64,000 nt of DNA from Escherichia phage vB_EcoM_IME392: the sequence record MH719082.1; one strand, written 5' to 3'. The stretch's first letter is position 1, and the number at the start of each line of letters is the position of its first letter. The notes under the pieces were generated by a model that searched no databases, was not told where the DNA came from, and worked only from the letters and a program-made list of their open reading frames with translations. A program made the translations under genes and the position numbers. Shown piece after piece: positions 1 through 28,340 of this stretch.

Positions 1-931
1 TCACATCCAGAGTTGATCCTGGTTGGAACTCTCGACCAACATCTTCCATTACGTATTCTAGAATACTGTGATCGCTATTATAACGAGAAGCAGCATCTTC
101 AAGAGTAGCGATGTAATGCTGGAAGTAGGTACGGATCTTATACCAGGAATTAAGTGATCCGAGATCAATCGTAGTTACCGGAGCTTCATTAATGTCGTCA
201 ACATAAGCTCGGATATTACTTACCTGCTTCTTGATGTTCGACACTTCCGGATACCAGTGGAGATCATCCGTCATCACCACATAGTTGCCCATATCTACTT
301 TGAGCATAGTTGCGATGATTTCCTGGATGATCGTGAACTCCACCAGATTAACGTTAGTCAATCCCCAGATTAGATCATTACTACGGTTGAATACCGTGCA
401 GTCCAGACCACCATTACGGTACTTAAACGATAGAGCAATGTTGCAGATCATATCTGCGGTATTGATGCTGCCGATGCTGTTTACCAAACCTACATCAGAA
501 TCACGGCTGGGATCGTGAATAGTAGCCACGCACTTACGGTTACCCAGGTCAGAACGGAGGCGGTCTGTTACAGTCTGGAGTTGATCGTAGTTATACAGAC
601 GCTCACCGTAAGCACCACGCCAGGTAACCATATCATCGCTAAACATCTTAGCGCGAGGAACCATAATCGACATCCAGTTATCGATTGCATAGCCACCAGA
701 CAGTACCCACAATACTTCCCCCATAATTCCGAGGATATTGTCTTTACGTTCTGGATGAGCCATCCAACGATTAATCGGATTACTTAACTCAACTACAGCA
801 TGACCGATGGATACTACCGCCGAAGAGTTAACAGAAGTTCTGGACTTCTGCAACTCACCAGCCTTATCCATAGTATTGATGCTGTTAACCAGGATTTCAG
901 TATTACTGTTACCGCGAATTACCGAGATCAT
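1..931 (-). CDS. Deoxypyrimidine-monophosphate hydroxymethylase / thymidylate-synthase-family enzyme (partial; 3' end beyond window start)
   Basis: Own translation of the minus strand from ATG 931..929 (overlaps upstream TGA as ATGA). The frame stays open to position 1. ThyA-family motifs are present: ...DLGNRKCVATIHDP..., catalytic-Cys region DMICNIALSFKY (T4 gp42-like rather than ThyA PCH), and LDCTVFNRSNDLIWGL (RSxD motif). It is absent from the ORF track because it runs off the window. Confidence 0.6.
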   Translation of the reverse strand, partial: MISVIRGNSNTEILVNSINTMDKAGELQKSRTSVNSSAVVSIGHAVVELSNPINRWMAHPERKDNILGIMGEVLWVLSGGYAIDNWMSIMVPRAKMFSDDMVTWRGAYGERLYNYDQLQTVTDRLRSDLGNRKCVATIHDPSRDSDVGLVNSIGSINTADMICNIALSFKYRNGGLDCTVFNRSNDLIWGLTNVNLVEFTIIQEIIATMLKVDMGNYVVMTDDLHWYPEVSNIKKQVSNIRAYVDDINEAPVTTIDLGSLNSWYKIRTYFQHYIATLEDAASRYNSDHSILEYVMEDVGREFQPGSTLDV

Positions 932-1662
932 TTAGAGTCCTTACGCACTGAATCAATAGACTTAACTGCAGAGGACAGTAACTCCAGACGGGCCTCCTGA
1001 GGGATCATACCAGATGGCTCATTCAGGATCATAATACCTTTACCAGTATTAGTAAAACGAGCTGTGATTGATCCAGGATACACCGGATGATTCAGAGTTA
1101 CAGAATTACACAACGCAGCACCGAATCGCTCCTCGTAGGCACGCATAGTTACCTTAAGGAGAGTAGAACTGACTGCTACAGAGTATTCCGGATCAACAAC
1201 ACGGAAGTTATTGTCCTCAATACTCTTATCCTTCGTATTGAAGAACAGAGTCATGTTATAATAATCAATAGACTCGTTACTGAGACGTAATGCCTCATCA
1301 CGAGCTTCCTGGCTAGCAAACATACTGTTATGCAGCAGGAAGTAAACGTACGAATCGAATACCGCACGATCACTGACGATCAACTCGCCACGATTGTAGG
1401 CATCCTTGAACATCTGAGTTCGCTGACGAATAAGACGCAGCTGGAACTCTACCGCTTCCATAGGATCTTCCACAGCTAAGCGCAGAATATCCATATGGGA
1501 TGTTACTCCCAGAGGAAGATGGTCACGAGTCTGTACTGCACGGAAGGTACATTCGGTTGATTCTTCCCAGCCTTTAGCCAGAGTAGATTTACCGGTACCC
1601 TGCGCACCAGACATAATTACACTGTAGCCTGGGATACTATAGTCTCTCATTATTCTCTCCAA
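928..1662 (-). CDS. P-loop nucleotide/nucleoside kinase (dNK-like); candidate hydroxymethyl-nucleotide or hydroxymethyl-DNA kinase
   Basis: Walker A GAQGTGKST. ELIVSDRAVFDSYVYF resembles the ERS-xxSDRYxF motif of dCK/dGK-type deoxynucleoside kinases. Start/stop are coupled to the hydroxymethylase gene. Confidence 0.55.
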   Translation of the reverse strand: MERIMRDYSIPGYSVIMSGAQGTGKSTLAKGWEESTECTFRAVQTRDHLPLGVTSHMDILRLAVEDPMEAVEFQLRLIRQRTQMFKDAYNRGELIVSDRAVFDSYVYFLLHNSMFASQEARDEALRLSNESIDYYNMTLFFNTKDKSIEDNNFRVVDPEYSVAVSSTLLKVTMRAYEERFGAALCNSVTLNHPVYPGSITARFTNTGKGIMILNEPSGMIPQEARLELLSSAVKSIDSVRKDSK

Positions 1663-1739: not shown

Positions 1740-2711
1740 CTAGCTAAACTTATACCAGCGAGGTCTCATACGGATCTCGTGATTCAGTTTATGTAGTTTC
1801 GAGAATTCGCAGAATGAGTTGGTGAACATCTGACGAGTATAGAACCGCTCATCCTCCGGCATGAAGTGGAACCATTTCTCCGGCTCCCATGCATACCCGA
1901 AATGAGCACATATCTCTTTGATGTTCTGATACCACCATTCCACGAACATCTGGTAGCCGCAAGGAGGGTTCTGGTCATTAAGCATGTACCATACCCCATC
2001 CTGCGTCCCGGGTCCACATACGATAGCATCGTTATCTGTGTACGCAGTCTCTTTAGAGTAGGACATAGTTGCCCAGCATTGATATGCCATGAACGGACCT
2101 AATCCAGATACCTGTAACAGATGCTCGATGGCCTCGGTAGCGAACGGAGACTTCCATGCCAGTAAGATAGGATCACTGTAGGTCTTCACCAGATAGGCTC
2201 TGGCAGCTACACTGTACTTAATATCCTCTGGACATACTTCATTAGCCATCTTAACTGCTGTGCTAAGGAAGTAGGCATTTGATTGCTGTGGAGCAGTGAA
2301 CGGAGGACCATCCTCATAACGACGTAGCTCTTCACGACCCATGTTATGTATGTCGTCATAGCTCATCTCATAAAGAGGAAGGACTCTGCGGAAGCGATCC
2401 ATATATGAATCACCACGGTTTATCATCTGGAAGAGTACCACGTTAAGCGCCTTACTCTCCCAGCTTAGGGAATCGTTCTCCAGAATGTTCTTGATAGCCC
2501 ATACTGTTTCACGATCGTGCTTACGGAACACGTTAGTGAATTTAAACTTACTAATCCACTTATGTTCTGTCCACGGAGGAGGTAGCTTAAGTATCTCCTT
2601 CTTATAATAAACCTCAGTCCGCTCGCGGTTATACTCCACATACTCACGTAGCTCCTCGGGATTTATCATCCCGAGTAACCCGTCGAAGTGCAAACCTAAC
2701 GGTTTAGACAT
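1740..2711 (-). CDS. Hypothetical protein of the DNA-modification module (323 aa, Trp/Tyr-rich)
   Basis: ORF with an upstream promoter-like element and an RBS. Its position lies between the kinase and the BGT-like gene. No motif is recognised by eye. Confidence 0.45.
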   Translation of the reverse strand: MSKPLGLHFDGLLGMINPEELREYVEYNRERTEVYYKKEILKLPPPWTEHKWISKFKFTNVFRKHDRETVWAIKNILENDSLSWESKALNVVLFQMINRGDSYMDRFRRVLPLYEMSYDDIHNMGREELRRYEDGPPFTAPQQSNAYFLSTAVKMANEVCPEDIKYSVAARAYLVKTYSDPILLAWKSPFATEAIEHLLQVSGLGPFMAYQCWATMSYSKETAYTDNDAIVCGPGTQDGVWYMLNDQNPPCGYQMFVEWWYQNIKEICAHFGYAWEPEKWFHFMPEDERFYTRQMFTNSFCEFSKLHKLNHEIRMRPRWYKFS

Positions 2712-3790
2712 TAAAGAATACCTTCTTTGGTAAAGTAGTCTATTACTTCATCCTGAAGTTCTTGTGCGTAATCCTTGCGCAGATATAGATTCTCATACTG
2801 ATGTTTCAGCAGAGCATCACGATCTTTCAGTTTCTCTGCAATCTCCGCATTACTGGAGACGATCAGAGGAGCCAGTAGCTCTTCGGGGACGCCGCTCCGG
2901 ATTATTGTTCCAGCAGCATCTTTATCCACCAGCATCAGAGTACCAGAGCTCAGGTATTCGTAATAACGGTTAGGTGGGCTGGTATAGAACGAATTACTGG
3001 AGTTCCAGTCTTCGATAAGCAGTACCGCTGCATATTTAGCCACTTCATCCAGCATCTCTGACAGCTTAAACTTAGGCAGCCAGTTAATCGGAGCAGCAGG
3101 TCCCAGCCACTTACGTTCTTTAGGATCCAGCTCTTCCCAGTTTTCCTGCTCGTAGCCGTCAAATCCTGCAAGACCACCAGTATGTTTAGCGATGGACATC
3201 TGAGCTTTGTAGCTCGGCACCGACATAAACAGTTCCAGACCATCTTGCTGGGAGAAGTACTGAGTGAACTTATGGAAGCGGCCTTCACGAGCAGCACCGT
3301 AATACAGCAGGCTATTGTCCGGCTTATCTGACGATCCATAGCGAGGCTTACGACCAGGAACGTAGGTAAGACGGTTCCAGTTAATGTGATGATAGTTCTC
3401 TTCGCTAGGAGAATACTGATTACCCCAGGAAGTACGTTCAAATGCTGCTACAACTTTAAATACAGTAGCTGCGGTGATGTGTCTCCACTGCGGACCCTGG
3501 ATACGCATCTTAGACGAGTAATCCTGTCCAATCCAGTAGAACTTAGCTCCGACATCTGCCTGGTCTACCCAGAACTTATACATCTCGTCGCGGAACTTAC
3601 AGAAGGTAGGAACACCATTGATGGCGATAATCACGTCATATTTAGTGCCATCTTCCATAGCCTTAACGAACTTAGGAGTATCGTCCAACAGGTCAGCTTG
3701 AAGTCCGTAGGCTAACCAGGAAGCCAGAGTATTACTGGCAATGATGGATTTATCGCTGCATGGCGAAAAGTTAGTTACTGCAATCTTCAT
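2711..3790 (-). CDS. DNA beta-glucosyltransferase-like glycosyltransferase (T4 BGT-like, GT-B)
   Basis: N-term MKIAVTNF resembles T4 beta-gt MKIAIINMG. LLYYGAAREGRFHK matches T4 BGT DVIYGGSFRSGQRE. AVLLIEDWNSSNSFYTSPPNRYYEYLSSGTLMLVD matches BGT ALIIGDKNYNDNFITLRVWETMASDAVMLID. Length is 359 aa, against 351 aa for T4 BGT. RBS GGAGAAATTAAACATG. Confidence 0.6.
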   Translation of the reverse strand: MKIAVTNFSPCSDKSIIASNTLASWLAYGLQADLLDDTPKFVKAMEDGTKYDVIIAINGVPTFCKFRDEMYKFWVDQADVGAKFYWIGQDYSSKMRIQGPQWRHITAATVFKVVAAFERTSWGNQYSPSEENYHHINWNRLTYVPGRKPRYGSSDKPDNSLLYYGAAREGRFHKFTQYFSQQDGLELFMSVPSYKAQMSIAKHTGGLAGFDGYEQENWEELDPKERKWLGPAAPINWLPKFKLSEMLDEVAKYAAVLLIEDWNSSNSFYTSPPNRYYEYLSSGTLMLVDKDAAGTIIRSGVPEELLAPLIVSSNAEIAEKLKDRDALLKHQYENLYLRKDYAQELQDEVIDYFTKEGIL

Positions 3791-3815: not shown

Positions 3816-3848
3816 AATTTAACAGCCTTTTAGCTCATCAAAGAAGCG
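3816..3848 (-). promoter_or_regulatory. Conserved promoter-like element (copy 2) upstream of BGT-like gene
   Basis: CAATTTAACAGCCTTTTAGCTCATCAAAGAAGCG. Overlaps the 3' end of the GT2 gene. Confidence 0.5.
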
Positions 3849-4872
3849 AGTTAGCTGATGCCCAGCTCAGCCAGTTATCGTTGAGATCGGTCAGGTAGGA
3901 GTAATCCTTATTCAGACCGAATACAGTACGGTTAGTTCCGTCGAACTTCATTATACCAGCGCCAGGAGCTCTGATGATTGCATCTTCCGTAGCCAGACAA
4001 TATTCTTTCAAGTATTCCTGGATGTTGGGACGAATACGACGGAAGGAACTATCTGCCGAGTCATAGTGGAACATATCTGCGCAGTGCCACTGTACGTAGG
4101 ATTTATCCGGACGGCTGAGTAGTTCATTACGGGTAACCATATCTTTAGGAGAATATCCCAGCTTAGCTACAGTGACTTCGTGAATACCTCCACCATTAGA
4201 CGAAGTATCCATCAGCCAGTTTTCGTCCCAGTAGAACGAAGTACCAGTACCAGTTACCTGTCCAACCTTCCAGCCCATCGCCATACCTTTAAACAACAGG
4301 TAGCAATCTTCTCCTACGGTCAACTGTTGGAAGGTTATATCGAACAGCCAGAACATCTTCTCACTGGTCTTGACCATGATACCGAGGTCAGTGGCCGGAG
4401 CAGTGTTATTATGTGACTGACGATCGCATAGTTCAACAATCTTGTAGTTACGATTCTTGAAGCTACGGACGAACGCCATCTCAAACTCAGATCCCTCGAA
4501 GTCTATAACGGAACGGTCCAGATGGAAAATATTATCTGCGAACCAGACATCATCATCCACGAAGTAGCAGATGTCTGGACACCAGTTCTGATCCTCCATT
4601 AAAATCCATGCCTTATCAAGAGCATGAGCTCGGATTCTTCCGATTACCGGATTATCGTACTTAGGACGATGCCAGAAATTAAACTGCTCGTCCCCACCGA
4701 ACTGCTCTTCCAGAACTGCCTTATCTTCTTCGGAGGCATCCTGCATAAAGTAGAAGAAACGATACTCGATAGAGTCGTCAGTCTTCTTAGCATCTTTGAA
4801 CGACTGAATCTGACGGAGTACCGACTTCATACGATGATAGGTTGGGATGATAAAAGCCACTTTGGTAGTCAT
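3838..4872 (-). CDS. Family-2 glycosyltransferase (GT-A fold)
   Basis: N-terminal VAFIIPTYHR (GT2 IIPTYN-type motif) and DXD motif YFVDDDVWF. Confidence 0.65.
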   Translation of the reverse strand: MTTKVAFIIPTYHRMKSVLRQIQSFKDAKKTDDSIEYRFFYFMQDASEEDKAVLEEQFGGDEQFNFWHRPKYDNPVIGRIRAHALDKAWILMEDQNWCPDICYFVDDDVWFADNIFHLDRSVIDFEGSEFEMAFVRSFKNRNYKIVELCDRQSHNNTAPATDLGIMVKTSEKMFWLFDITFQQLTVGEDCYLLFKGMAMGWKVGQVTGTGTSFYWDENWLMDTSSNGGGIHEVTVAKLGYSPKDMVTRNELLSRPDKSYVQWHCADMFHYDSADSSFRRIRPNIQEYLKEYCLATEDAIIRAPGAGIMKFDGTNRTVFGLNKDYSYLTDLNDNWLSWASANSLL

Positions 4873-4878
4873 ATTTAT

Positions 4879-5490
4879 TTATCCAATTTGACGAACTAAG
4901 CGAAACCCTTCGGCGTACGGCCACTGGGCAGAATATCCACGTAAGGTGGCTAGAGCTAAGATACTCTGGGTATCTCGGTCTGACTTAATCTGGGAGTCGA
5001 ATCGTCCCATAGCCTGGCACTTACACTCAATATCGTCCTTATTCAGACGCTCGAAGTAATTAGGTTCCATCTGACCGAACTGGGTCAGGGACTCGGCATA
5101 CTCATATTCCAGGATAAGCCAGTTATACGCTCGGAGAGCTACACGAGCAGCATGATTAACTAGTTGATGGTCCTGGTGTAGGCTACTGAACGGAATATAG
5201 ACTACATCCGGCCTGATTTTAGCAACATAGTCCGCAATATCCTTAGCCAATTGCGGAATATCCTTCTGAGTCATACCATCGCCTGTGGAGGCATCGTTAC
5301 GCTCCAGGCAATGTACTTCTTTGATATTCGGATAGACACCGAATGCTGCTTCGGCTTCACCACGACGGGTCTCGTCCGGAGCAGTTACTTCGAGGATGAA
5401 AAATTGGTCGTCGCGGAATTTGCTCATAATACCTCCGCAACCCAGAATCTCATCATCGTGATGTGGGCTGATAATCAATCGTGACTTCAT
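4879..5490 (-). CDS. PIG-L/LmbE-family de-N-acetylase (GlcNAc deacetylase-like)
   Basis: Signature SPHHDDEILGCGG near the N-terminus and the second zinc-ligand motif HQDHQ. The 203-aa size is typical of MshB/BshB/LmbE proteins. Confidence 0.75.
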   Translation of the reverse strand: MKSRLIISPHHDDEILGCGGIMSKFRDDQFFILEVTAPDETRRGEAEAAFGVYPNIKEVHCLERNDASTGDGMTQKDIPQLAKDIADYVAKIRPDVVYIPFSSLHQDHQLVNHAARVALRAYNWLILEYEYAESLTQFGQMEPNYFERLNKDDIECKCQAMGRFDSQIKSDRDTQSILALATLRGYSAQWPYAEGFRLVRQIG

Positions 5491-5496
5491 TATTAA

Positions 5497-5532
5497 TCCT
5501 CGCTACACAAAAATGGGGTTAGGCCGTAGAGA
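5497..5532 (-). terminator. Hairpin + T-run (minus strand) between BCCT and PIG-L genes
   Basis: Minus strand: GGGGTTAGG-TCTCTACGG-CCTAACCCC followed by ATTTTTGTG. Confidence 0.5.
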
Positions 5533-5553
5533 CCTAACCCCGTACGCCTCTGA

Positions 5554-5588
5554 CACCTTAACAGCCTTTTAGGTCATCAAACAGGAGG
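5554..5588 (-). promoter_or_regulatory. Conserved promoter-like element (copy 3) upstream of PIG-L gene
   Basis: CACCTTAACAGCCTTTTAGGTCATCAAACAGGAGG. A hairpin/terminator follows at 5497..5532. Confidence 0.45.
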
Positions 5589-6959
5589 AGTTTCCTTAGC
5601 CAAGAATACTTTAGGTACAAAGATCTTGAGGAACCCGAATAGAATACACAATACCCCAATCAGTACCGGAACAGCCGATACAGCTACCAGAGTCTTCGTT
5701 ACAGTTACTACGTCACCACCTGCCCAGTTAAGTGCAGCAGCAACTACACCCATGCTTACAATCCAGAATACACGAGTTCTAGGAGCGGTCATGGACTCTA
5801 CCGTAATACCTGCTGAGTCATGACCTGTAATAAAGAACAGAATCACAGACACGAGGGTAATTACTGAGAATATCCATCCGCCTGGGAAATTAGCCAGAAG
5901 CTGGAAGATATCCTGAGCACCATGTTGCAAACCGGCTACACCGAATACGGTAAACCATACGTTACTGATAATGGTAGGGAACAGTACACATCCCAGGATC
6001 AGTTCGCGAATAGTACGGCCGTAAGAGATACGTGCCACAAACGCTCCGACGAATAATGCCCAACCTACCCAGGCTGCATAGTAAGCATAAGGCCAGCTAG
6101 CCAGCCATTGCTTCTCTTCAGCAGTACTGCCAATGTTTACCGACATAGGAATAATCTGGAGCAGATAGCTGCCAGAATAGGTGATGGTCTTCCAGAGGTA
6201 TTCAAAGAATGTACCACTTACAGCAACGAATGCCATAATAGATAGAGCTACGATTACATTATATCTGGATAACCACTTAACCCCACGATCGACACCAGTT
6301 ACGGCACTAAGTACAGTGCCCAGAGTCAGGAGTGCGATAATGGTGTAAGGACCAACATCCACACCAAGGAACTCTTTAAATCCAGAACTGATCGGGCCTA
6401 CTGCGTAGACGAACGACAGGGTTAAGCCTATGATGGTCGAGAAGAGTAAGCTTATCGTATTAAGGTTATTCAGAGTTCGGGACTTGAATAACTGATTAAG
6501 CGGACGGTCTTCACCACGTACATGCAGTAAGTACCCGAATGCCACCCCTACGACTGCATACACAGCCCATGCATTAAGTCCCCAGTCAAAGAAGGTAGTT
6601 ACCATATTCTGACGTTCGGACATACCCTCCTGATGATGGTACATAGGTTCGAGTACGCCATAATAAATCATGGATACACCCATACCGGTACTAAACATCA
6701 TAGAGTAATAGGTAAAGCGATTGTATTTCGGAGTACCTTTACCCAGCTTAATGTTACCATGTTTGCTGAATACAAAGAATGCCAGGAACGCCAGGAAGAT
6801 CAGCGAAGACCAGGTAAATATGAATCCATACTGAGATATAAATACAGACTTACTCCAGTCCATTACAGCACCAAACTGGGTGGGAGCAAACATAATGGCG
6901 AGTACAATACCCACCGTTACCAGCACCGTCCCCCAGGTAACTACCTTTGAATCGGACAT
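5577..6959 (-). CDS. BCCT-family (betaine/carnitine/choline) secondary transporter
   Basis: 460-aa polytopic membrane protein. N-terminal FSKHGNIKLG motif and the BCCT signature WPYAYYAAWVGWALFVGAFVARISYGRTIREL (cf. W..FYWAWW.SW.PFVG.FIARIS.GRTIRE). Confidence 0.85.
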   Translation of the reverse strand: MSDSKVVTWGTVLVTVGIVLAIMFAPTQFGAVMDWSKSVFISQYGFIFTWSSLIFLAFLAFFVFSKHGNIKLGKGTPKYNRFTYYSMMFSTGMGVSMIYYGVLEPMYHHQEGMSERQNMVTTFFDWGLNAWAVYAVVGVAFGYLLHVRGEDRPLNQLFKSRTLNNLNTISLLFSTIIGLTLSFVYAVGPISSGFKEFLGVDVGPYTIIALLTLGTVLSAVTGVDRGVKWLSRYNVIVALSIMAFVAVSGTFFEYLWKTITYSGSYLLQIIPMSVNIGSTAEEKQWLASWPYAYYAAWVGWALFVGAFVARISYGRTIRELILGCVLFPTIISNVWFTVFGVAGLQHGAQDIFQLLANFPGGWIFSVITLVSVILFFITGHDSAGITVESMTAPRTRVFWIVSMGVVAAALNWAGGDVVTVTKTLVAVSAVPVLIGVLCILFGFLKIFVPKVFLAKETPPV

Positions 6960-6962
6960 TGA

Positions 6963-7871
6963 TTATTCCTCAATTACGCCCTTAGCGATTAACTGGCGAC
7001 GGACGTATGCGTAGCCAGCAGGTGAAGTAGCGAGGACGATGTCCGCACTACGGAAGTTGGTTTCGATATAGAAGCACTCCTGAAGATCCCGAGTACAGAA
7101 GAGCTCAGTACTCATCATACCCTCGCGTACGTTACATGCATCTGCAACGAATTGCGCAACATCTTCGAAGTGGTCTACCGAATGACTATAGCCGAATCCA
7201 CGGGCATCAGTAGATATAACGTAGTTAGGGCAGTACGGAGTGAAGTCAGTATCTTCGTAGGATTTACCCTGGATAGTGAAGATATCTGCATAGTCCTTGA
7301 ACCCGCTCGGGCTAACCAGAAGATCCCAGGCAACTACCATACCATCGATAACATCTGCCTGAAGTACCAGAGAGGTAGTATATTCGTCCGGTGCCTTATC
7401 GCAGACCAAAATTGGGGAGTCTCCCAGAAGGTCCGACATAGTGCCCGCACCCTTGCCCCCGTGAACACGATCACGGCGTACAAACGCCTCCTGAGGCCTC
7501 TGGTACAGTCTGAACGACGGTACAATCAGCGAATCAGGCAGAGTTCCCAGGTTAGCTTCGGAGCGAAGGCAGGATAATTGGTCAGCTTTAGACCACGTAC
7601 TTTCGATAGCGTGCAGATCGTTACCGATTTTGGTATAGATATAGCTTTCCGGATTACGGCACTTACCCTGATTCAACTCTTCGATAACCGAGTCGAAATA
7701 AGGAAGTCGTACTGATCCCTCACGAGGAGCAGTTAACGCTACTGAGCCATGCTTGGTATGATCCTGATCAACTACCATAACCTGGTCCAGACTTACACCC
7801 ATCTTAAGAATCTGGGATAATGTAGCTGCCGTGTGATTAGTGCAGCCAATCATCAAATCTAACTTCTTCAT
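6963..7871 (-). CDS. Hypothetical protein (302 aa) of the modification module
   Basis: ORF tightly packed between the transporter and the methyltransferase, with a promoter-like element upstream. No confident family assignment. Confidence 0.45.
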   Translation of the reverse strand: MKKLDLMIGCTNHTAATLSQILKMGVSLDQVMVVDQDHTKHGSVALTAPREGSVRLPYFDSVIEELNQGKCRNPESYIYTKIGNDLHAIESTWSKADQLSCLRSEANLGTLPDSLIVPSFRLYQRPQEAFVRRDRVHGGKGAGTMSDLLGDSPILVCDKAPDEYTTSLVLQADVIDGMVVAWDLLVSPSGFKDYADIFTIQGKSYEDTDFTPYCPNYVISTDARGFGYSHSVDHFEDVAQFVADACNVREGMMSTELFCTRDLQECFYIETNFRSADIVLATSPAGYAYVRRQLIAKGVIEE

Positions 7872-7895
7872 TTTAATTCCTCAGTTAACTTGTAC

Positions 7896-7928
7896 AACCT
7901 AACAGCCTTTCGAACCCTAAAAAGAGCG
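7896..7928 (-). promoter_or_regulatory. Conserved promoter-like element (copy 4) upstream of gene 6963..7871
   Basis: ACCTAACAGCCTTTCGAACCCTAAAAAGAGCG. Confidence 0.5.
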
Positions 7929-7972
7929 AAATAATAGATATCTAGCCATCTCGTAAGATGGCTATGTATATA

Positions 7973-8713
7973 TTACTTTAATTCGGAGAGATCTGCGATC
8001 TTCACCTTAGCTGATACATCCCAGATTCCTTCACCAAATCCGGTATCTTCCAGCAGCTTAGGCACTTCACGTTTCTGTACCTTAGATTGCTCGTACTTAA
8101 GCAGAGGAATATTACCGGTCTTATCTGATTGATCCCACAGATAAGTAGCAGCACCGATGTTATCGAACAGTGCGAGATCTGGATTAAACTGGGTAAGGAG
8201 TCGGCAGTCCCAGTGAGACTTATGTTCCTCGAAAGGATTAGTTTCCGTGCCACGCTGACGATACTCATAGTTAGGAGTACCGATCACGATTTTAGCCTTA
8301 GACTGGAATAGCTTAGACAACACCATAAGCCCGTCTTCGCTATCCAGATGCTCCAACACATCCAGCCAGATAATAGTGCCGAATTTATCCAGCTCTTCAA
8401 TAGGAAGATCTTTCAACAGTTCAACGATATTGCAGATATAGATATCGCTATATACATTTACACTGCCTTTGATGTAGTCTTCGCAGATGTCCAGACCTGT
8501 AATCTGACCATCGAATCCTGCGTTACGGAGAGCAAGACCAATTTCTCCACGACCTAATCCCATATCCAGGATTGGCCCGGAGATAATTTCGTTACGGAGC
8601 ATCCATTGGAGAAAGTGCTTCTGGACTAAGTAGGAGGTGCCTCCGTTGCCCAGTGAAGCCTTCGTGACCTTAGTACCAGGAACGAAATTACACTCGATAT
8701 GTTTACCAAACAT
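7973..8713 (-). CDS. SAM-dependent methyltransferase (class I Rossmann)
   Basis: Motif I-like ILDMGLGRGEIGLAL (cf. VLDLGCGTG), and an acidic residue after beta-2 in GLDICED. Confidence 0.55.
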   Translation of the reverse strand: MFGKHIECNFVPGTKVTKASLGNGGTSYLVQKHFLQWMLRNEIISGPILDMGLGRGEIGLALRNAGFDGQITGLDICEDYIKGSVNVYSDIYICNIVELLKDLPIEELDKFGTIIWLDVLEHLDSEDGLMVLSKLFQSKAKIVIGTPNYEYRQRGTETNPFEEHKSHWDCRLLTQFNPDLALFDNIGAATYLWDQSDKTGNIPLLKYEQSKVQKREVPKLLEDTGFGEGIWDVSAKVKIADLSELK

Positions 8714-8817: not shown

Positions 8818-10065
8818 TTACAGTTTACCGATCATCTTCTGAATCATCTCGTCAGAAGTCTGATTCTCTACCTTAGCACGACGTTCTTGCAGATTAGCAA
8901 TGCGGTCGTCGTGATCTTTCTTACGTAGCATGCTGATGCTACGGCTAAGGCAGGAATTCAACACTTCCTGGGTAATACCGAGAGCTTTGATGATCTGAGC
9001 ATCAGACTTATCCTGCATAACCAGCTCGCCCACTTTAGGAAGAATCTGGTAAATCTCGATGTCTCGGTCAATCTTCTTAAGAGACTCAGTCTTATGGACG
9101 GAGAATGCCTGATTGTAGAGAGCCATCGTGACTGCAATCCAGTCGCGAATACCCATCGTCACCAGTTGACCATTGTAGGCTACCTGGATACGATGCGAGC
9201 GGTTCATGTAAGCAATATTCATGCATGCTTCGTGAACCTCGTCCATATCGATGGTCCTGATACGGGGAGCCTTCATTACTCGGATATAGATCTTATCCTT
9301 GGACATGTTCTTGACCAGGATCTTACCTTCTGATAACCACTTATTCAGGAACCCGATGCGAGGAGTAATTACCTCACCAGACCCGATGATGTCGATGGTG
9401 TCGGTATTGACGCGAGTTACCTTAAGGGTAAGGCCTAAGCGACCTACACCAGTTTCCCATAAGGACTTAAGGTCTGACTTACTCGGCACGATATCATACC
9501 CGTACTGAGCCTTAAGCAGATTATAATCGTCATGCTTGTAGGCTTCCAGCAGACTCTCGTAAGTGAATGCTGGGATACGGGACTGAATACCAGTAGCCCA
9601 TGAGAAGGTACCATACATCAGAGCATACGGAATAGGCACTGGAAGGTATGCGTATTCCATCTTCTCTTCACCTTCAACCTGCGGAACATAGTCCGCTAGA
9701 CCGAAGTAGTATTCTGCACGATCTTCGTTCAGGCCAACCTTCGTGTAACGAGGAGCAGCACCAGGAACTTCTTCCAGCAACTTAACGCCGAAAGATCCCT
9801 GACCATCAATAGCACCGATGCGAGCAAGACGGGAAATAGTCCCATCGATAGACTGGTCACCGAATGGGTGTAGCGACTGAGTTTCTGAGATAGCGCTCAG
9901 AGTCCCCACCAGCTTCCCACGAGCAATGCTATTCAGAGCCATGTAGATACGGCGCTGGGCAGGAATCAGGCCATCGATACCGGGAACTACACGATGAAGA
10001 GCACAATACACACTGTAGTCAGTGTAGTTCTTGGTGATGAATTCAGAAATCTTTACCTGTTCCAT
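8818..10065 (-). CDS. Type II DNA topoisomerase medium subunit (T4 gp52-like, GyrA-type cleavage domain)
   Basis: 415 aa, immediately downstream of the large subunit. The size and position match the T4 gene 39/52 arrangement. Confidence 0.65.
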   Translation of the reverse strand: MEQVKISEFITKNYTDYSVYCALHRVVPGIDGLIPAQRRIYMALNSIARGKLVGTLSAISETQSLHPFGDQSIDGTISRLARIGAIDGQGSFGVKLLEEVPGAAPRYTKVGLNEDRAEYYFGLADYVPQVEGEEKMEYAYLPVPIPYALMYGTFSWATGIQSRIPAFTYESLLEAYKHDDYNLLKAQYGYDIVPSKSDLKSLWETGVGRLGLTLKVTRVNTDTIDIIGSGEVITPRIGFLNKWLSEGKILVKNMSKDKIYIRVMKAPRIRTIDMDEVHEACMNIAYMNRSHRIQVAYNGQLVTMGIRDWIAVTMALYNQAFSVHKTESLKKIDRDIEIYQILPKVGELVMQDKSDAQIIKALGITQEVLNSCLSRSISMLRKKDHDDRIANLQERRAKVENQTSDEMIQKMIGKL

Positions 10066-10067
10066 AA

Positions 10068-12053
10068 TTACTCCTTAAACAGACCGTAGTCTTCTAACAG
10101 TTGGCGACGAGCACGAGATGAGTACAGCAACTTACGAGCGGCATCGAGATGCTCTTCATTATCATCGTAGGTTACCTGGATAAGACGGCGAGATTTCGAG
10201 TTAATGATGAATTGCTCAGTTTCTTCTTCGGTATATGACCCGAGTCCCTTACGACGTTCAACATAGCACTTATCGAAGTCGATCTTATCCTTCTCGTCAG
10301 CGTAGTAGAACTCGGTCTTCTTACCATTCTTAACTACATAGAACGGAGCTTCGAGTTTATACAGACGACCATCTTTAACCAGCTCTGGAGCATGGATAAG
10401 GAAGATTGAGCTAATGAGGTTACTGATGTGCTGACCATCAACATCAAGGTCGGTCATAATGATGATCTTACCGTAACGAGCCTTATCTATGTCAAACATC
10501 TGGCCCATACCACACCCGATAGTATTGATGATCGCCAGCAGCTCTGGGTTATTCACGAATTCCATGATATCCATGGAAGCCGAGTTACGCATCTTACCGC
10601 GAAGAGGAAGCACCGACTGATACTCATTACGCAACTTGATGATATTACCAGAAGCAGACGGACCCTCTGTGATGAACAGCTCACGAAGATCCCAGCGGTC
10701 GGACGGAGATTCGTAGATCTTCGCCATGTCACCATCCATAGCGGCCTTACGGTGATCATCACCCATCACCAGCTTAGACTTAATGAAGTCCATGTTGGAG
10801 AGTTTATTCAGGCTAGCTTTGTAAGCCAGGATCTTGGCAATCAGAGCATCAAAGAATTGCTTATTCTTCTCGTATACCAGGCTGAAGTAGAATGTGAGCT
10901 GACTCAGGCATTCTTTCTCGTAGAAGAAGTACTCGCCATAATAGTCGTAATCGTTGATTTGCTCATCATTCAGCATCAACTTATTCTTAGCCATGATTTC
11001 CCAGTCGCTCCAGGACATACCGAGGCCAGTTAACTTCTCCTTAGTCTGCGAGGAGAATGCTGTACGATAGCTGGAGAAGACGTTAGTGAACACGATCAAT
11101 CCCAGCTTAGCATCACCAACAGTGATAGCAGAGTTAACTTTATTCAGCATACCGCCGAGCGCTCTCGTGACCAGCTTCTCATGCAGACCACCATGCGGGT
11201 TATTGATCAAGTTGATCATGTCTACATGGGAGTAGGACATATTCTTATCAGAGTAGCCCAACTCACCAGAGAAGGTCAGACGATCGTTGAACGAGAACTC
11301 GTACTTGACTGTAGTATCGAGGAACAGCTTCTCATTCTCTGCAACATCACGACGAAAATCCCAGGTAGCCAGAGCTTCACCATTAACGGTGATAGTTGCA
11401 TCACGACCAATCAGGGAGATCTTCAGAGGAACAGTATCCACATCAGACCAGATGCTGCGGTACAGAGTCGCATCAGGCACCATGAAGACTGCTGTGGAGA
11501 AGTCGGTAGCCTTTAACGTCTCGAGCACTTCGTCTGGGAAGCCATCGTCGTGAAGATCATTCAGATCATTGATCACTCCATCGATTTCCATAACACCACG
11601 GCGGAATCCGAGGACATAGAACTGACCTGGCTCCATAGGGATGTGTGCCTTATCTCCCTGCATTACGCGACGGATTACAACGAATCGCTCGGACACTGCG
11701 TTAACAGCGGAGCTACCTACGCCATGGGTACCAGAGGTAATTTCACGGTTATCGCCCAGCTTAGAGCCAGCATGCAGATCTGTTACAGTAGAGAACAGAA
11801 TAGATTTAGACGGATCTTCCGGATCAGCGTAGATAGGAATACCACGTCCGTTATCGGTAACCAACTTGTAGGCTTCACGGTTAATGATCTGCACTAGGTT
11901 AGCATAACCATTAAGCAGCTCGTCCTCCGCATTATTGATTATTTCCTGGAGAGGATGAGTGTAGTTAATCGGGTCACCGAGATACATGGATACGTTCTGA
12001 CGAACGTTATCAGGGTAACGCAATCTTGTGATTTCAATAGCATGTTCTGACAT
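10068..12053 (-). CDS. Type II DNA topoisomerase large subunit (T4 gp39-like, GyrB-type ATPase + TOPRIM)
   Basis: GHKL ATPase motifs EIINNAEDE, DNGRGIP and GTHGVG. TOPRIM IIMTDLDVDGQHI. Confidence 0.85.
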   Translation of the reverse strand: MSEHAIEITRLRYPDNVRQNVSMYLGDPINYTHPLQEIINNAEDELLNGYANLVQIINREAYKLVTDNGRGIPIYADPEDPSKSILFSTVTDLHAGSKLGDNREITSGTHGVGSSAVNAVSERFVVIRRVMQGDKAHIPMEPGQFYVLGFRRGVMEIDGVINDLNDLHDDGFPDEVLETLKATDFSTAVFMVPDATLYRSIWSDVDTVPLKISLIGRDATITVNGEALATWDFRRDVAENEKLFLDTTVKYEFSFNDRLTFSGELGYSDKNMSYSHVDMINLINNPHGGLHEKLVTRALGGMLNKVNSAITVGDAKLGLIVFTNVFSSYRTAFSSQTKEKLTGLGMSWSDWEIMAKNKLMLNDEQINDYDYYGEYFFYEKECLSQLTFYFSLVYEKNKQFFDALIAKILAYKASLNKLSNMDFIKSKLVMGDDHRKAAMDGDMAKIYESPSDRWDLRELFITEGPSASGNIIKLRNEYQSVLPLRGKMRNSASMDIMEFVNNPELLAIINTIGCGMGQMFDIDKARYGKIIIMTDLDVDGQHISNLISSIFLIHAPELVKDGRLYKLEAPFYVVKNGKKTEFYYADEKDKIDFDKCYVERRKGLGSYTEEETEQFIINSKSRRLIQVTYDDNEEHLDAARKLLYSSRARRQLLEDYGLFKE

Positions 12054-24348: not shown

Positions 24349-25140
24349 TCAGTACCGAGGATCAGTATCCTGATAGTCGCGAATTAGGTCATAGACGAGC
24401 ACATCCAGACGAGTAGCATCTTCACGTTTCATGCGGGTAGGTCTGTACATATGGATACATACACAATGCTTAGACCAGACCTTAGCAGTCTGACGCTCCG
24501 TAAGTTCTTTACGGTCGATAATGTACTTCTCGAATGCGTGATAAGAGATAGGCTTTGATACTTCGACATGCTGGCACATATCGAGGAACTGCGGGTAGTC
24601 GTCAGTTAAGAAGCGACTGAATACGTCCTGGTAATAAGAGTAGTTAGGGAATTTACCACCCTGCTCCAGAGATAACGCATGAGTCTCGATCTCCTTCAAC
24701 ATCAGAGCCATAAATTCCTGATTATTGCTGGGAGAGGTCCACATGTTTATCTCGCAGTAATCTAACCGAGGGGAATAAACACGTACCTGAGTCTCGTGAG
24801 GAGTATACGTTTCGTGAGGGCTTCTGATAAAGAGAGTATCAGCATCTACATAGGAGTAACCACGAAGATCCATCATTACCTGAATCTTGAGTCGCAGATA
24901 GTCACATACAGAGGCCATCTTAGCCTTAGTTTTCAGGATATTATACGCCTTCTCCATAATAGGATCTCTGGCGAATAAATCCTGGATCATAACGCAACGG
25001 CAACCTTCGATAATATTCTCTTCGTTATCGATCACCAGTACATGATCATTAGGTCCGTATTTCTGTAAGGACTTAATGCATTCCCGAACATGGATAGGCA
25101 TTTTGGGTCCTACCCAAAGCTGGAAATAATTCTGACTCAT
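24349..25140 (-). CDS. Glycosyltransferase with DXD sugar-binding region (GT32 / Gly_transf_sug-like)
   Basis: N-terminal FQLWVGPKMP (cf. IHQIWIG). DYLRLKIQVMMDLRGYSYVDADTLF matches the D..R..L...GG.Y.D.D region. Confidence 0.5.
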   Translation of the reverse strand: MSQNYFQLWVGPKMPIHVRECIKSLQKYGPNDHVLVIDNEENIIEGCRCVMIQDLFARDPIMEKAYNILKTKAKMASVCDYLRLKIQVMMDLRGYSYVDADTLFIRSPHETYTPHETQVRVYSPRLDYCEINMWTSPSNNQEFMALMLKEIETHALSLEQGGKFPNYSYYQDVFSRFLTDDYPQFLDMCQHVEVSKPISYHAFEKYIIDRKELTERQTAKVWSKHCVCIHMYRPTRMKREDATRLDVLVYDLIRDYQDTDPRY

Positions 25141-28181: not shown

Positions 28182-28340
28182 TTAAATTTTACATGCATCT
28201 CCGCAGTCGTCGTCACCAGGCTGGCTGATAACTTCGTCTACGTTAACCATGCGATCTTCTACACGACGAGATGCCTCGTCTAATTCTTCCTGAGATGGGA
28301 GATTGGAGAAATCCAATTCTTCACCAGATTTATTGCCTGA
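28182..28340 (-). CDS. Small acidic hypothetical protein
   Basis: Part of ORF 28182..28388, with an internal start MSGNKSGEE. Overlaps the end of the upstream gene. Weak. Confidence 0.25.
   Translation of the reverse strand, partial: SGNKSGEELDFSNLPSQEELDEASRRVEDRMVNVDEVISQPGDDDCGDACKI

Follow-up and report, generated by a model that had tools for sequence, protein, structure and literature searches.

Why would a coliphage carry a sugar de-N-acetylase gene beside glycosyltransferase genes, among its genes for nucleotide metabolism and replication? We addressed this question in a 64,000-nt stretch of DNA from Escherichia phage vB_EcoM_IME392 (MH719082.1), the whole of which is referred to below as the window. 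IME392 is a close relative of phage EP_H11, and both belong to the SP15/RP13-like UDG-PolA phage group, for which a modified thymine has been predicted in two papers (PMC12686479; bioRxiv 2025.03.26.645540). A preliminary description of the locus had read a GT2 glycosyltransferase gene and a PIG-L gene as a two-step system that places GlcNAc on hydroxymethyl bases of DNA and then de-acetylates it. The two open reading frames concerned, at 4879-5490 (203 aa) and 3838-4872 (344 aa), were confirmed, both on the minus strand. The features of the locus, in the direction of transcription, are the following:

5577..8713, minus strand: upstream cassette of a SAM methyltransferase, an orphan 302-aa protein and a BCCT transporter (Pfam)
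7973-8713, minus strand: SAM methyltransferase of the cassette (several weak class-I methyltransferase matches in Pfam)
6963-7871, minus strand: orphan 302-aa protein of the cassette
5577-6959, minus strand: BCCT transporter of the cassette (Pfam BCCT, E=1e-92)
5515..5541, minus strand: terminator-like hairpin with an 11-bp stem and a T-run, between the BCCT and PIG-L genes (sequence scan)
4879..5490, minus strand: PIG-L/LmbE-family (CE14) metal-dependent de-N-acetylase, 203 aa, first gene of a putative operon (PF02585 and motifs)
3838..4872, minus strand: divergent GT-A-fold glycosyltransferase, nearest GT2, 344 aa (confident model)
2711..3790, minus strand: T4 beta-glucosyltransferase-like (GT-B-like) protein, 359 aa (profile and hhalign; moderate support)
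1740..2711, minus strand: HMUDK_hel-family protein, elsewhere annotated aGPT-Pplase clade 1, 323 aa (PF18723)
928..1662, minus strand: P-loop kinase, 244 aa (AAA_28, PHROG 2107)
2..931, minus strand: divergent thymidylate-synthase (TS) homologue, its C-terminus cut by the window edge (Thymidylat_synt)

The PIG-L gene had been described as following the glycosyltransferase gene. The two do adjoin, but PIG-L is transcribed first, and its stop codon lies 6 nt before the start of the GT-A gene. The genes downstream of this pair are co-oriented with it, and two intergenic spacers in the run are of moderate length (47 and 77 nt). The PIG-L ATG at position 5490 has a GAGGA ribosome-binding site in front of it, and the hairpin just upstream indicates the upstream limit of the PIG-L operon. 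A sigma-70 promoter scan gave sites no more numerous than in a shuffled control. The structural genes are about 25 kb away on the opposite strand. A DNA-modification context for the pair was upheld, as it shares its predicted operon with the HMUDK_hel/aGPT-Pplase clade 1 gene and the TS homologue.

The 203-aa protein matched Pfam PF02585 with 52.9 bits (cutoff, 28.2; E=6.7e-14) over residues 5-118, which cover positions 1-128 of the 129 in the model, and it also matched PHROG 11796 (E=2.5e-21). Its SPHHDD (H10, D12 and D13) and HQDH (Q106, D107 and H108) motifs pair with PHPDD and HPDH of TT1542 (1uan). These six residues are invariant in seven phage sequences, comprising four orthologues and three distant homologues, and the metal-binding signature is thus intact, as had been claimed. 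The best PDB matches were TT1542 (E=1.9e-6) and diacetylchitobiose deacetylase (E=1.7e-4). The protein did not score as a BshB1, BshB2 or MshB equivalog (25 bits against a cutoff of 182.5 for BshB1; 22 against 195 for BshB2), and by sequence it is very divergent from all characterised members. To our knowledge, all of these (MshB, BshB, GlcNAc-PI deacetylase, diacetylchitobiose deacetylase and BtrD) target the 2-N-acyl group of a glucosaminide, and their substrates are all small or lipid-linked; we know of no characterised member that acts on a non-glucosaminide amide. Among other phages, PIG-L homologues in Stenotrophomonas phage Summit and Campylobacter phage CP220 adjoin genes for nucleotide-sugar dehydratase, aminotransferase and epimerase, suggesting that such homologues may act on soluble sugars. 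Actinobacteriophage homologues carry the annotation 'glucosaminyl deacetylase'.

An AF2 model built from a 15-sequence alignment confidently predicts that the 344-aa protein adopts a GT-A (Rossmann-like) fold closest to GT2 enzymes; a run with 4 sequences was discarded (pLDDT 44.7, C-terminal two-thirds unusable). The GT2 designation was therefore retained as nearest fold, but the window protein has no Pfam match, Glycos_transf_2 (PF00535) and related GT2 models included. Among the 15 GT-A relatives, one matched Glyco_tranf_2_3 (E=0.024) and another Glycos_transf_2 (E=0.098). A PDB profile search with the family retrieved TarS (E=0.008), with the match confined to the N-terminal half. D106-D107-D108, which profile-aligns to the DxD region of TarS, is invariant in the 15 members; of the G187-E188-D189 motif, the first and last residues are invariant and E188 nearly so. 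The solved structures closest to the model were the teichoic-acid decorators TarP, TarS and RmlT. That GT2 enzymes often transfer GlcNAc had been offered as evidence for the donor. However, the donors of the fold neighbours are UDP-GlcNAc, TDP-Rha, UDP-Galf, UDP-GalNAc and GDP-Man, a variety indicating that the fold tells nothing about the donor. The GT-A family has 15 representatives in 1.84 billion proteins. Word-indexed homologue searches found only four proteins with its 15-sequence profile and only five with the profile of the 359-aa protein; by these searches, both families are genuinely rare.

Similarity of the 359-aa protein to T4 beta-glucosyltransferase (BGT) depended on the method. 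T4 BGT (1bgt) was the top PDB match of a 4-sequence profile (E=0.0074), but it was no longer retrieved by a 6-sequence HMMER profile. Global alignment by hhalign gave a probability of 84% and a score of 36.4, against scores of 8.1 or less for 24 shuffles and the reversed sequence, whereas the local mode gave a probability of only 36-48%. BGT residues D100, R191, R195, R269 and E272 correspond to D90, R168, R171, R275 and E278 of the 359-aa protein, which are invariant in six lineages. We take Asp100 of BGT to be catalytic and Arg191, Arg195, Arg269 and Glu272 to bind UDP. A weak match to Glyco_trans_1_2, the Pfam model of the GT-B C-terminal domain, was seen in four of the six family members. 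The pI of this family is 5.2-5.8, and that of the PIG-L, GT-A and BGT-like proteins together is 5.0-5.8 in every lineage, compared with 9.0 for T4 BGT. The BGT-like neighbour of the preliminary description was thus supported by global alignment and weakened by the larger profile, and because of that loss we grade the likeness, a sequence-based one, as moderate and not firm.

The remaining genes of the operon point to thymidine. The 323-aa protein matched HMUDK_hel (PF18723) with E=3.2e-35; its identity is 32% to RP13 ORF120 and about 26% to Ackermannviridae homologues likewise matching HMUDK_hel. An Ackermannviridae protein annotated 'aGPT-Pplase clade 1' matched PF18723 at E=1e-76. The HMUDK_hel family is a marker of thymidine-hypermodifying phages, with a predicted role in the modification. 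Clade 2 aGPT-Pplase, the demonstrated amino-acid:DNA transferase (PMC8989533), had no Pfam match among the cluster proteins, some of which were scanned at E up to 10. The 244-aa kinase matched Pfam AAA_28 (E=2e-9) and PHROG 2107 'thymidylate kinase' (E=1e-11), and gave no match to the ViI or M6 kinases by tblastn. Its sequence is compatible with two alternatives, a nucleotide kinase of hm-dUMP/dTMP type or the catalytic portion of a kinase for 5-hmdU DNA. Acinetobacter phage Ab1-TPeters has the kinase-TS pair without the glycosylation genes, which suggests that kinase and TS are backbone genes, not specific to the latter, and that the kinase may be a nucleotide kinase. The TS homologue is divergent (Pfam Thymidylat_synt, E=3.1e-12). 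Its full-length orthologue in EP_H11 is annotated thymidylate synthase, and a YfbR-like 5'-deoxynucleotidase gene lies downstream in EP_H11 and in L002, a lineage introduced below. On sequence, it is a candidate dUMP hydroxymethylase. Where hmC had been named as a possible target base, we infer 5-hmdU-derived thymidine.

The arrangement is conserved in six lineages (the window with EP_H11, L002, L008/L007, L015, L003 and L016). In all of them PIG-L lies immediately upstream of GT-A (27-76% identity), the gap to the glycosyltransferase gene is 6 nt, and the BGT-like gene comes next. Given a contig of sufficient length, the kinase and/or HMUDK_hel gene comes after these, and so does the TS gene where the contig extends that far; L016 has PIG-L, GT-A, the BGT-like gene, kinase and TS, and HMUDK_hel is absent from it. 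The site of the three glycosylation genes is also constant, between topoisomerase II genes and the kinase-TS-HD-primase-helicase-PolA genes. In a tblastn search of 50,697 phage records, the GT-A, 359-aa and 302-aa proteins matched only EP_H11, which was likewise alone among these records in having homologues of PIG-L, GT-A and the 359-aa protein. This result indicates that SP-15, YerA41, Carin-5 and RP13 do not have this module. It is carried by IME392 and EP_H11, both of them cultured E. coli phages. Enzyme families, catalytic motifs, gene coupling, conservation and genomic context are directly established by these observations.

Upstream of PIG-L, the cassette is flanked by terminator-like hairpins at 8812-8791 and 5541-5515. 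The methyltransferase, previously taken as adjacent and as a candidate for N-methylation, lies 2.5 kb upstream, beyond the BCCT transporter, the orphan gene and the terminator-like hairpin. Cassette content differs between lineages, the alternatives being methyltransferase with BCCT, a PS-decarboxylase-like gene with ATP-grasp, and extra glycosyltransferases. The cassette may supply further tailoring, perhaps of the PIG-L product, and its variability suggests combinatorial diversification of the glycan. The orphan 302-aa protein was considered as an ATP-grasp ligase on account of a Gly-rich 'HGGKGAG' loop and an 'E-x-N' motif, an assignment that the searches did not support: it had zero matches in Pfam, PHROGs, NCBIfam and PDB, and hhalign against bona fide ATP-grasp proteins of related clusters gave a probability of 0.5% or less. 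We also rejected the idea that the relatives' ATP-grasp and PS-decarboxylase genes are independent of PIG-L, as had seemed so in L016, since the truncated first gene of L016 is PIG-L.

We propose, at roughly an even chance of being right, that PIG-L, GT-A and the T4-BGT-like protein form a conserved three-enzyme glyco module in the nucleotide-metabolism/replication region of IME392-like coliphages, by which a glycan on 5-hydroxymethyl-dU in DNA would be built and then tailored, with PIG-L converting a HexNAc to a free-amine HexN. In this scheme, the TS homologue would make 5-hm-dUMP, and hmdU would be incorporated into DNA. From host UDP-sugars, the BGT-like and GT-A enzymes would then assemble a short glycan on the hydroxymethyl group or its derivative. 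One sugar of the glycan would be an N-acetylhexosamine, most plausibly derived from UDP-GlcNAc, whose N-acetyl group PIG-L would hydrolyse to leave a free-amine hexosamine. The amine could place positive charge in the major groove or serve as a handle for further tailoring, by methylation in IME392 and EP_H11 and by other chemistry in relatives. Context is the basis for naming DNA as the substrate, for the sugar and the step order, and for the choice of HexNAc-adding transferase. DNA modification is favoured because the module is co-oriented with the HMUDK_hel gene, the kinase and a TS-type enzyme and lies away from the structural genes, and because the BGT-like protein keeps equivalents of BGT Asp100 and the UDP-binding Arg and Glu residues. 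Validated phage 5hmC DNA GT-A enzymes, some of which add HexNAc, have TarP as their top PDB match (bioRxiv 2023.12.21.572611), and the proximity of TarP to the window GT-A protein also counts for this reading. So does the glycosylated thymidine of the group members SP-15, YerA41 and Carin-5, together with the HexNAc residue and sugar deacetylase gene of Carin-5 (PMC12686479). The glucosaminide substrates known for characterised PIG-L enzymes point the same way. Counting against it are the acidic pI of all three module proteins, the weak BGT similarity that was lost in one HMMER profile search, the absence of clade 2 aGPT-Pplase from the cluster, in which HMUDK_hel has only a predicted role, the occurrence of the kinase-TS pair without the module in Ab1-TPeters, the nucleotide-sugar genes beside PIG-L homologues of other phages, the BCCT gene directly upstream, which hints at small-molecule metabolism, and a PIG-L protein that is far below the BshB1 cutoff and no equivalog of characterised deacetylases. 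A more specific version is that, on a thymine-derived base, IME392-like phages carry a de-N-acetylated amino sugar, which would be glucosamine, free or N-methylated, in the major groove. The orphan 302-aa enzyme would perhaps elaborate the amine with a quaternary-ammonium compound (of choline, betaine or carnitine type) brought in by the phage BCCT transporter. We regard this version as a long shot; if it is true, the phage imports an extracellular metabolite specifically for building its DNA modification.

De-acetylation could instead precede attachment to DNA. One transferase and PIG-L would make a soluble glucosaminide, or would de-acetylate a nucleotide sugar, and the free amine or hydroxyl of the compound would then be joined to activated (phosphorylated) 5-hmdU, so that DNA would still receive the amino sugar but PIG-L would never touch DNA. 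Activated 5-PmdU chemistry does use amine or hydroxyl nucleophiles (PMC8989533), and the route resembles known thymidine hypermodification, in which the amines of putrescine, glycine, glutamate or diaminopropane become linked. The operon includes both the HMUDK_hel/aGPT-Pplase clade 1 gene and a P-loop kinase gene, the acidic PIG-L and transferases suit soluble substrates better than DNA, characterised PIG-L enzymes are generally known to use small or lipid-linked glucosaminides, and the Summit and CP220 homologues adjoin nucleotide-sugar genes. However, the cluster was found to lack clade 2 aGPT-Pplase, for which alone transferase activity has been demonstrated, and has no gene for synthesis of a soluble acceptor; L016 keeps the module, kinase and TS without HMUDK_hel; and the catalytic base and UDP-binding residues kept by the 359-aa protein suggest direct glycosyl transfer to a DNA base. 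We consider pre-attachment de-acetylation unlikely, at about one chance in five.

Two further explanations move the target away from a DNA-linked sugar. The module might glycosylate and de-acetylate a component of the host envelope (such as LPS, ECA or PNAG-type polymers) or else a protein, whether of the virion or not, and thereby serve to exclude superinfecting phages or to mask receptors; precedents are TarP, the Gtr systems and the glycosylation of mycobacteriophage virions. The teichoic-acid substrates of TarP, TarS and RmlT, the annotation of the actinobacteriophage PIG-L homologues, the transporter gene next door and the acidity of the module proteins are all consistent with such a role. 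No module protein is membrane-associated by family, however, and the sole membrane protein, BCCT, belongs to a separate cassette behind a terminator-like hairpin. In six lineages the module is in the early/replication region, co-oriented with the thymidine-modification marker and TS, with structural genes some 25 kb distant on the other strand, and the only specific structural relative of the 359-aa protein by sequence is a DNA glucosyltransferase. A target other than DNA is accordingly rated as quite improbable. Still less probable, in our estimate, is that PIG-L is a non-sugar amidase of the thymidine pathway, one that takes acyl or acetyl groups off amino-alkyl or amino-acid side chains of the base (PaMx11-type N-acetylation in reverse would be an instance) while the transferases act independently. 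N-acetylated thymidine derivatives such as 5-acetylaminomethyl-dU of PaMx11 exist (PMC8989533), and the great divergence of PIG-L from characterised members would accommodate such a substrate; yet the 6-nt coupling to the glycosyltransferase gene holds in all six lineages, and the cluster has neither an acetyltransferase nor a clade 2 amino-acid transferase. A non-glucosaminide amide would also be a first for a characterised PIG-L enzyme, as far as is generally known.

Judged from sequence, the most likely outcome remains an amino sugar hung on phage DNA. Phage DNA hypermodifications decide cutting by restriction enzymes, CRISPR nucleases and other defences, and they have been a repeated source of new enzymology and tools. 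Known protection of pyrimidines uses sugars (Glc, Ara, HexNAc and heptose) or cationic amines (putrescinyl-, aminoethyl- and aminoethoxymethyl-dU). If present, a de-N-acetylated amino sugar would merge these two strategies and would be the first DNA modification with positive charge delivered through a sugar, and a PIG-L enzyme would join the short list of enzymes working on DNA-linked groups. Our literature searches found no de-acetylated amino sugar on DNA, in agreement with the preliminary description. A sugar deacetylase of a different family had already been noted in a thymine-glycosylation block of Carin-5 (PMC12686479). Newly defined here are a very rare GT-A family, a T4-BGT-like family and variable tailoring cassettes.

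How does the module compare with known systems? Phage GT-A DNA glycosyltransferases, with which the trypanosome base-J glucosyltransferase JGT is grouped by description, put hexose, HexNAc and heptose glycans on 5hmC, and HexNAc on DNA is proven for these systems (bioRxiv 2023.12.21.572611). Like them, the window protein has a GT-A fold, a putative R...DDD...ED active-site pattern and TarP among its closest solved structures; like theirs, its system is proposed to use host UDP-sugars and clusters with TS-type or oxygenase-type hydroxymethyl-pyrimidine synthesis. Unlike them, its family is tiny and its base thymine-derived, and a sequence relationship is undetectable. A sugar de-N-acetylase is unreported for the 5hmC systems, whereas the window cluster has one.

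The 359-aa protein aligns end to end with T4 BGT (GT63) and keeps five key residue equivalents, and the two-step gentiobiosyl-hmC of T2 and T6 is a precedent for a second transferase extending a first sugar. It differs from T4 BGT in identity (about 25%), in pI (5.4 versus 9.0) and in base, which we infer to be hmU and not hmC; T-even phages have no deacetylase, whereas the module has PIG-L. Thymidine is glycosylated in SP-15, YerA41 and Carin-5, which have oligosaccharide- and phosphate-bearing hypermodifications; Carin-5 shows a HexNAc residue of 203 Da and, within its block of glycosyltransferase genes, a gene for a 'polysaccharide deacetylase' (PMC12686479). IME392 resembles these phages in its SP15/RP13-like UDG-PolA lineage and its TS-homologue gene; the Carin-5 deacetylase is annotated as polysaccharide-deacetylase type, whereas the window enzyme is of the PIG-L family. 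The 5-HMUDK/aGPT-Pplase thymidine clusters, whose usual products are cationic amines, share the grouping of an HMUDK_hel/clade 1 gene, a P-loop kinase and a TS-type enzyme. The window, unlike them, has no clade 2 transferase, PLP decarboxylase or radical-SAM enzyme, and its glycosyltransferases and sugar deacetylase are unmentioned in the papers on those clusters.

The MshA/MshB, BshA/BshB and PIG-A/PIG-L pairs likewise couple a PIG-L protein with an intact Zn/catalytic motif to glycosyltransferases. MshA, BshA and PIG-A are GlcNAc transferases of family GT4 with a GT-B fold, so the canonical partner of a mycothiol/bacillithiol-type deacetylase is a GT-B enzyme and not the GT2 enzyme that had been supposed, and the transferase immediately coupled here is GT-A. 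Their acceptors are inositol phosphate, malate and phosphatidylinositol, whereas DNA is proposed for the window system, and no counterpart of the subsequent cysteine ligase of mycothiol/bacillithiol-type pathways was identified in it. By analogy, the logic of the mycothiol, bacillithiol and GPI pathways, in which a glucosamine amine is freed for the next step, may nevertheless apply here, and the GT-B-like 359-aa protein could be the true analogue of their GlcNAc-adding step.

The interval 3838-5490 contains just two ORFs, and the 203-aa PIG-L ORF is transcribed before the 344-aa ORF, 6 nt away, a spacing of the translational-coupling type. Every gene in window positions 1-29,000 lies on the minus strand, and those around the pair are listed here in the order of transcription.

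Genes and hairpins around the PIG-L/glycosyltransferase pair
10068-12053 and 8818-10065, minus strand: topoisomerase II subunits
8812-8791, minus strand: strong terminator-like hairpin
7973-8713, minus strand: class-I SAM methyltransferase (weak UbiG-like matches)
6963-7871, minus strand: orphan 302-aa protein
5577-6959, minus strand: BCCT transporter (Pfam E=1e-92)
5541-5515, minus strand: strong terminator-like hairpin
4879-5490, minus strand: PIG-L/LmbE family member by Pfam and PHROG, 203 aa
3838-4872, minus strand: GT-A transferase by fold and motifs, 344 aa
2711-3790, minus strand: 359-aa protein, T4 beta-glucosyltransferase-like in profile comparison
1740-2711, minus strand: HMUDK_hel-family protein (Pfam E=3.2e-35)
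928-1662, minus strand: P-loop kinase (AAA_28; PHROG 'thymidylate kinase')
2-931, minus strand: divergent thymidylate-synthase homologue (E=3.1e-12), incomplete at the window edge

The two hairpins flank the methyltransferase, orphan and BCCT genes, a separate three-gene cassette with the methyltransferase first. As they set this cassette apart, PIG-L is the first gene of a unit that takes in the glycosyltransferases and extends as far as the kinase and thymidylate synthase (TS). Contrary to the preliminary description, the methyltransferase is thus not adjacent to the pair; the orphan gene, the BCCT gene and a terminator-like hairpin intervene.

The PIG-L protein matches Pfam PF02585 with 52.9 bits (E=6.7e-14; cutoff 28.2 bits) and PHROG 11796 (E=2.5e-21). 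In alignment, PHPDD and HPDH of TT1542 correspond to its SPHHDD and HQDH motifs, and H10, D12, D13, Q106, D107 and H108 are invariant among 4 orthologues and 3 distant phage homologues, bearing out the earlier claim of an intact metal-binding signature. No characterised deacetylase is its equivalog: against the BshB1 model it scores 25 bits, where the cutoff is 182.5. Distant phage homologues, 25-29% identical, likewise lie in sugar-related surroundings. In Campylobacter phage CP220 (comparison locus L013) the neighbours are ThyX, a polysaccharide deacetylase and a nucleotide-sugar epimerase; in Stenotrophomonas phage Summit (L014) they are a dehydratase, aminotransferase, methyltransferase, glycosyltransferase and ParB-like gene; and in Vibrio phage V-YDF132 (L012) a ParB-like gene and one for a glycosyltransferase are nearby. 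PIG-L may be a recurrent, unstudied component of phage glycan or DNA-modification modules.

No match to the 344-aa protein was found in Pfam, PHROGs or NCBIfam, and when 1.84 billion representative proteins were searched exhaustively with HMMER, only 15 relatives emerged. An AlphaFold2 model built from the alignment of these relatives was confident (pLDDT 88.2, pTM 0.89); an earlier one from a shallow alignment was poor and was set aside. The top Foldseek matches of the confident model in the PDB were solely GT-A/GT2 enzymes (CgT, TarP, RmlT, TarS, AvpGT, K4CP and SpsA; E ~1e-8 to 1e-6, probability 1.0), and a PDB profile search matched TarS over the N-terminal half (E=0.008). The invariant residues of the family are D106-D108, G187, D189, G228, G229 and R281; R14, in a PTYHR motif, and E188 are nearly invariant. 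Because of these fold neighbours and conserved motifs, the proposed pairing of a GT2 enzyme with PIG-L is confirmed at the fold and motif level, although no GT2 sequence model supports it. The most distant family member is P0014, a 525-aa protein extended at its C-terminus; in comparison locus L004 (574-3709; also L005 and L006) its gene lies directly after one for a 521-aa QueC-domain protein, a neighbour that could tie the family to 7-deazaguanine-type nucleic-acid modification.

A PDB search with the single 359-aa sequence gave nothing relevant. With a 4-lineage profile of its family, T4 beta-glucosyltransferase (BGT) was the best match (E=0.0074), but it was no longer matched by a 6-lineage profile. 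Comparison with BGT (a sequence identical to PDB 1bgt) by local hhalign gave 36-48% probability over the C-terminal 90 residues. Global hhalign aligned 302 columns end to end (probability 84%, score 36.4), compared with scores of at most 8.1 for 24 shuffled BGT sequences and the reversed sequence. In the global alignment D90, R168, R171, R275 and E278, invariant in all six lineages, fall on BGT D100, the catalytic base, and R191, R195, R269 and E272, which bind UDP. Four of six family members weakly match Glyco_trans_1_2, a GT-B C-terminal model. The acidic character of the family (pI 5.2-5.8, against 9.0 for BGT), shared by the GT-A and PIG-L proteins, speaks against the assignment. The BGT-like neighbour of the preliminary description is therefore moderately supported as a predicted GT-B transferase: the global alignment, residue equivalences and 4-lineage profile argue for it, and the 6-lineage profile and acidic pI against.

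Contigs encoding GT-A relatives were compared by all-against-all BLASTP. In six lineages (window/EP_H11, L002, L008/L007, L015, L003 and L016) PIG-L immediately precedes the GT-A gene, with identities to the window proteins of 49-76% for PIG-L, 27-61% for GT-A and 31-75% for the 359-aa protein. A homologue of the last lies downstream in every lineage, sometimes after inserted genes (a 302-aa orphan in L015; phosphatidylserine (PS)-decarboxylase-like, ATP-grasp and CxxCxxCC genes in L016). Wherever a contig reaches far enough the module is flanked by topoisomerase II genes on one side and the kinase gene on the other, and longer contigs carry TS, HD-nucleotidase, primase, helicase and PolA genes further downstream. 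The interval between topoisomerase II and PIG-L is variable.

Genes between topoisomerase II and PIG-L
IME392/EP_H11: methyltransferase, orphan, BCCT
L002: GT32-like, GT-A paralogue, PS-decarboxylase-like, ATP-grasp homologue (itself without a Pfam match; 30% identical to the L008 ATP-grasp), CxxCxxCC, orphan, BCCT
L008: GT32-like, methyltransferase, GT-A paralogue, PS-decarboxylase-like, ATP-grasp
L015: as L008, with a CxxCxxCC gene replacing the methyltransferase

Acinetobacter phage Ab1-TPeters has the kinase-TS-HD-primase-helicase-PolA backbone without any glyco module, so the P-loop kinase may act on nucleotides (hm-dUMP/dTMP type) and not on DNA. The glyco module (PIG-L, GT-A, BGT-like and usually HMUDK_hel, which is missing from L016) behaves as an insertable unit.

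Extra tailoring genes lie beside PIG-L in L002 (3805-6937), L008 (5418-8098), L015 (4225-7383) and L016 (1439-3909). They encode a GT-A paralogue, a PS-decarboxylase-like (pyruvoyl) enzyme, an ATP-grasp ligase, a 42-63-aa protein and a CxxCxxCC protein, which suggests combinatorial elaboration of the modification by carboxylate ligation and then decarboxylation. A methyltransferase orthologue (51% identity) adjoins the GT-A paralogue in L008. The BCCT (betaine/carnitine/choline) transporter directly upstream of the modification operon (460 aa; 5577-6959) is complete and very divergent, and is encoded by a lytic-type phage. It is at most 39% identical to plasmid-borne BCCTs. In 50,697 phage records its one close match is that of EP_H11; the others are at most ~30% identical, many of them in unannotated short or metagenome-derived records; L002 has the same gene (89% identity). 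Invariably paired with it in the window, EP_H11 and L002 is the acidic orphan 302-aa protein, which found no match in Pfam, PHROGs, NCBIfam or the PDB; its 'HGGKGAG' and 'ETNFR' motifs are reminiscent of ATP-grasp ligases, an assignment to which profile comparison lent no support.

Further genes in the window were noted. A 263-aa protein (24349-25140, minus strand), 12 kb from the cluster, weakly matches Gly_transf_sug (GT32-like, DXD; E=5.5e-4), is 22-26% identical to the 260-aa product encoded after topoisomerase II in the L002, L008 and L015 modification clusters, and might supply the pathway with a third glycosyltransferase. A 921-aa protein (13374-16139, minus strand), with an N-terminal Metallophos domain (Mre11/SbcD-like) and an SMC/Rad50-like ATPase with a zinc-hook signal, looks like a fused SbcCD/gp46-gp47-type nuclease. 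The 952-aa structural-region protein with a Glyco_hydro_19 (chitinase/lysozyme-like) domain (43944-46802, plus strand) is probably a tail-associated lysin, and a 160-aa YpsA SLOG-family protein (28330-28812, minus strand) is encoded at the end of the early region.

The families, motifs, coupling-type spacing, conservation and co-orientation within a replication and nucleotide-metabolism region are direct observations. In the function that we propose, the module would use host UDP-sugars to glycosylate phage DNA at bases derived from 5-hmdU. An N-acetylhexosamine (HexNAc) would be among the sugars added, and PIG-L would remove its acetyl group to leave a free amine. We give this reading about an even chance. 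It rests in part on the activity of the characterised PIG-L enzymes, each of which, to our knowledge, cleaves the 2-N-acyl group from a glucosaminide. As the HexNAc-adding transferase, the GT-A enzyme is favoured by the 6-nt coupling. Analogy favours the 359-aa protein instead, as a GT-B enzyme is the transferase in every canonical 'GlcNAc then PIG-L' pathway that we know of (MshA/MshB, BshA/BshB, PIG-A/PIG-L). Candidate acceptors are the hydroxyl of hmU, phosphorylated hmU or the first sugar.

The proposed function rests further on the BGT-like protein and on linkage to HMUDK_hel, a family (also named aGPT-Pplase) confined to thymidine-hypermodifying phages among the genomes compared by Lee et al. 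(PMC5889632). An Ackermannviridae protein annotated 'aGPT-Pplase clade 1' matches Pfam HMUDK_hel (E=1e-76), and this common model makes the 'aGPT-Pplase' of two papers (PMC12686479; bioRxiv 2025.03.26.645540) and the window's protein one family. Those papers assign IME392 and EP_H11 (111 kb; 93% DNA identity to the window region) to SP15/RP13-like phages, with a UDG-fused family-A polymerase, and predict thymine modification in both because of this gene and the TS homologue; their PIG-L and glycosyltransferase genes are unmentioned. Glycosylated thymidine in related phages argues likewise: thymidines of SP-15, YerA41 and Carin-5 bear oligosaccharide and phosphate (PMC12686479; bioRxiv 2025.03.26.645540), and Carin-5 carries a HexNAc residue, with a gene for a sugar deacetylase lying in its glycosylation block (PMC12686479). 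A further argument is that phage GT-A enzymes have been proven experimentally to place HexNAc on 5hmC; their closest solved structure is TarP (bioRxiv 2023.12.21.572611), also among the neighbours of the 344-aa protein. The closest homologue of the window's HMUDK_hel (32% identity) is that of Ralstonia phage RP13. Within 10 kb of it lie genes for a myo-inositol-1-phosphate synthase and a member of the WbqC family (14054-15334 and 2011-2733 of locus L010), unusual genes for a phage with suspected thymine modification.

PIG-L might instead act on a soluble precursor, the amine then being joined to activated hmdU as are putrescine, glycine and diaminopropane. This fits the acidity of the module proteins, the presence of HMUDK_hel and the nucleotide-sugar setting of PIG-L in other phages. 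Against it, Pfam scans of the window cluster detected no aGPT-Pplase of clade 2, for which amino-acid:DNA transferase activity has been demonstrated (PMC8989533), and L016 has no HMUDK_hel; we consider this route rather unlikely. Teichoic-acid enzymes among the GT-A structural neighbours could point to the host envelope or a virion protein as target, a reading that genomic position and gene linkage render improbable. That PIG-L is a non-sugar amidase is highly improbable, given its invariable coupling to a glycosyltransferase.

The general idea of the preliminary description, conversion of GlcNAc to GlcN on DNA, is thus plausible and fits the context, although several details were wrong and the DNA substrate is putative. 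Its impression that an amino sugar on DNA was unreported held: in full-text literature searches no publication described a de-N-acetylated amino sugar on DNA or placed a PIG-L enzyme in a pathway of DNA modification, and the thymidine-hypermodification pathway paper mentions neither glycosyltransferases nor deacetylases. Two cultured coliphages are available for a direct test. The module would represent glycan hypermodification of hydroxymethyl-pyrimidines with an added, putative de-N-acetylation step, the nearest precedent for which is the 'polysaccharide deacetylase' noted in passing in the Carin-5 block (PMC12686479).
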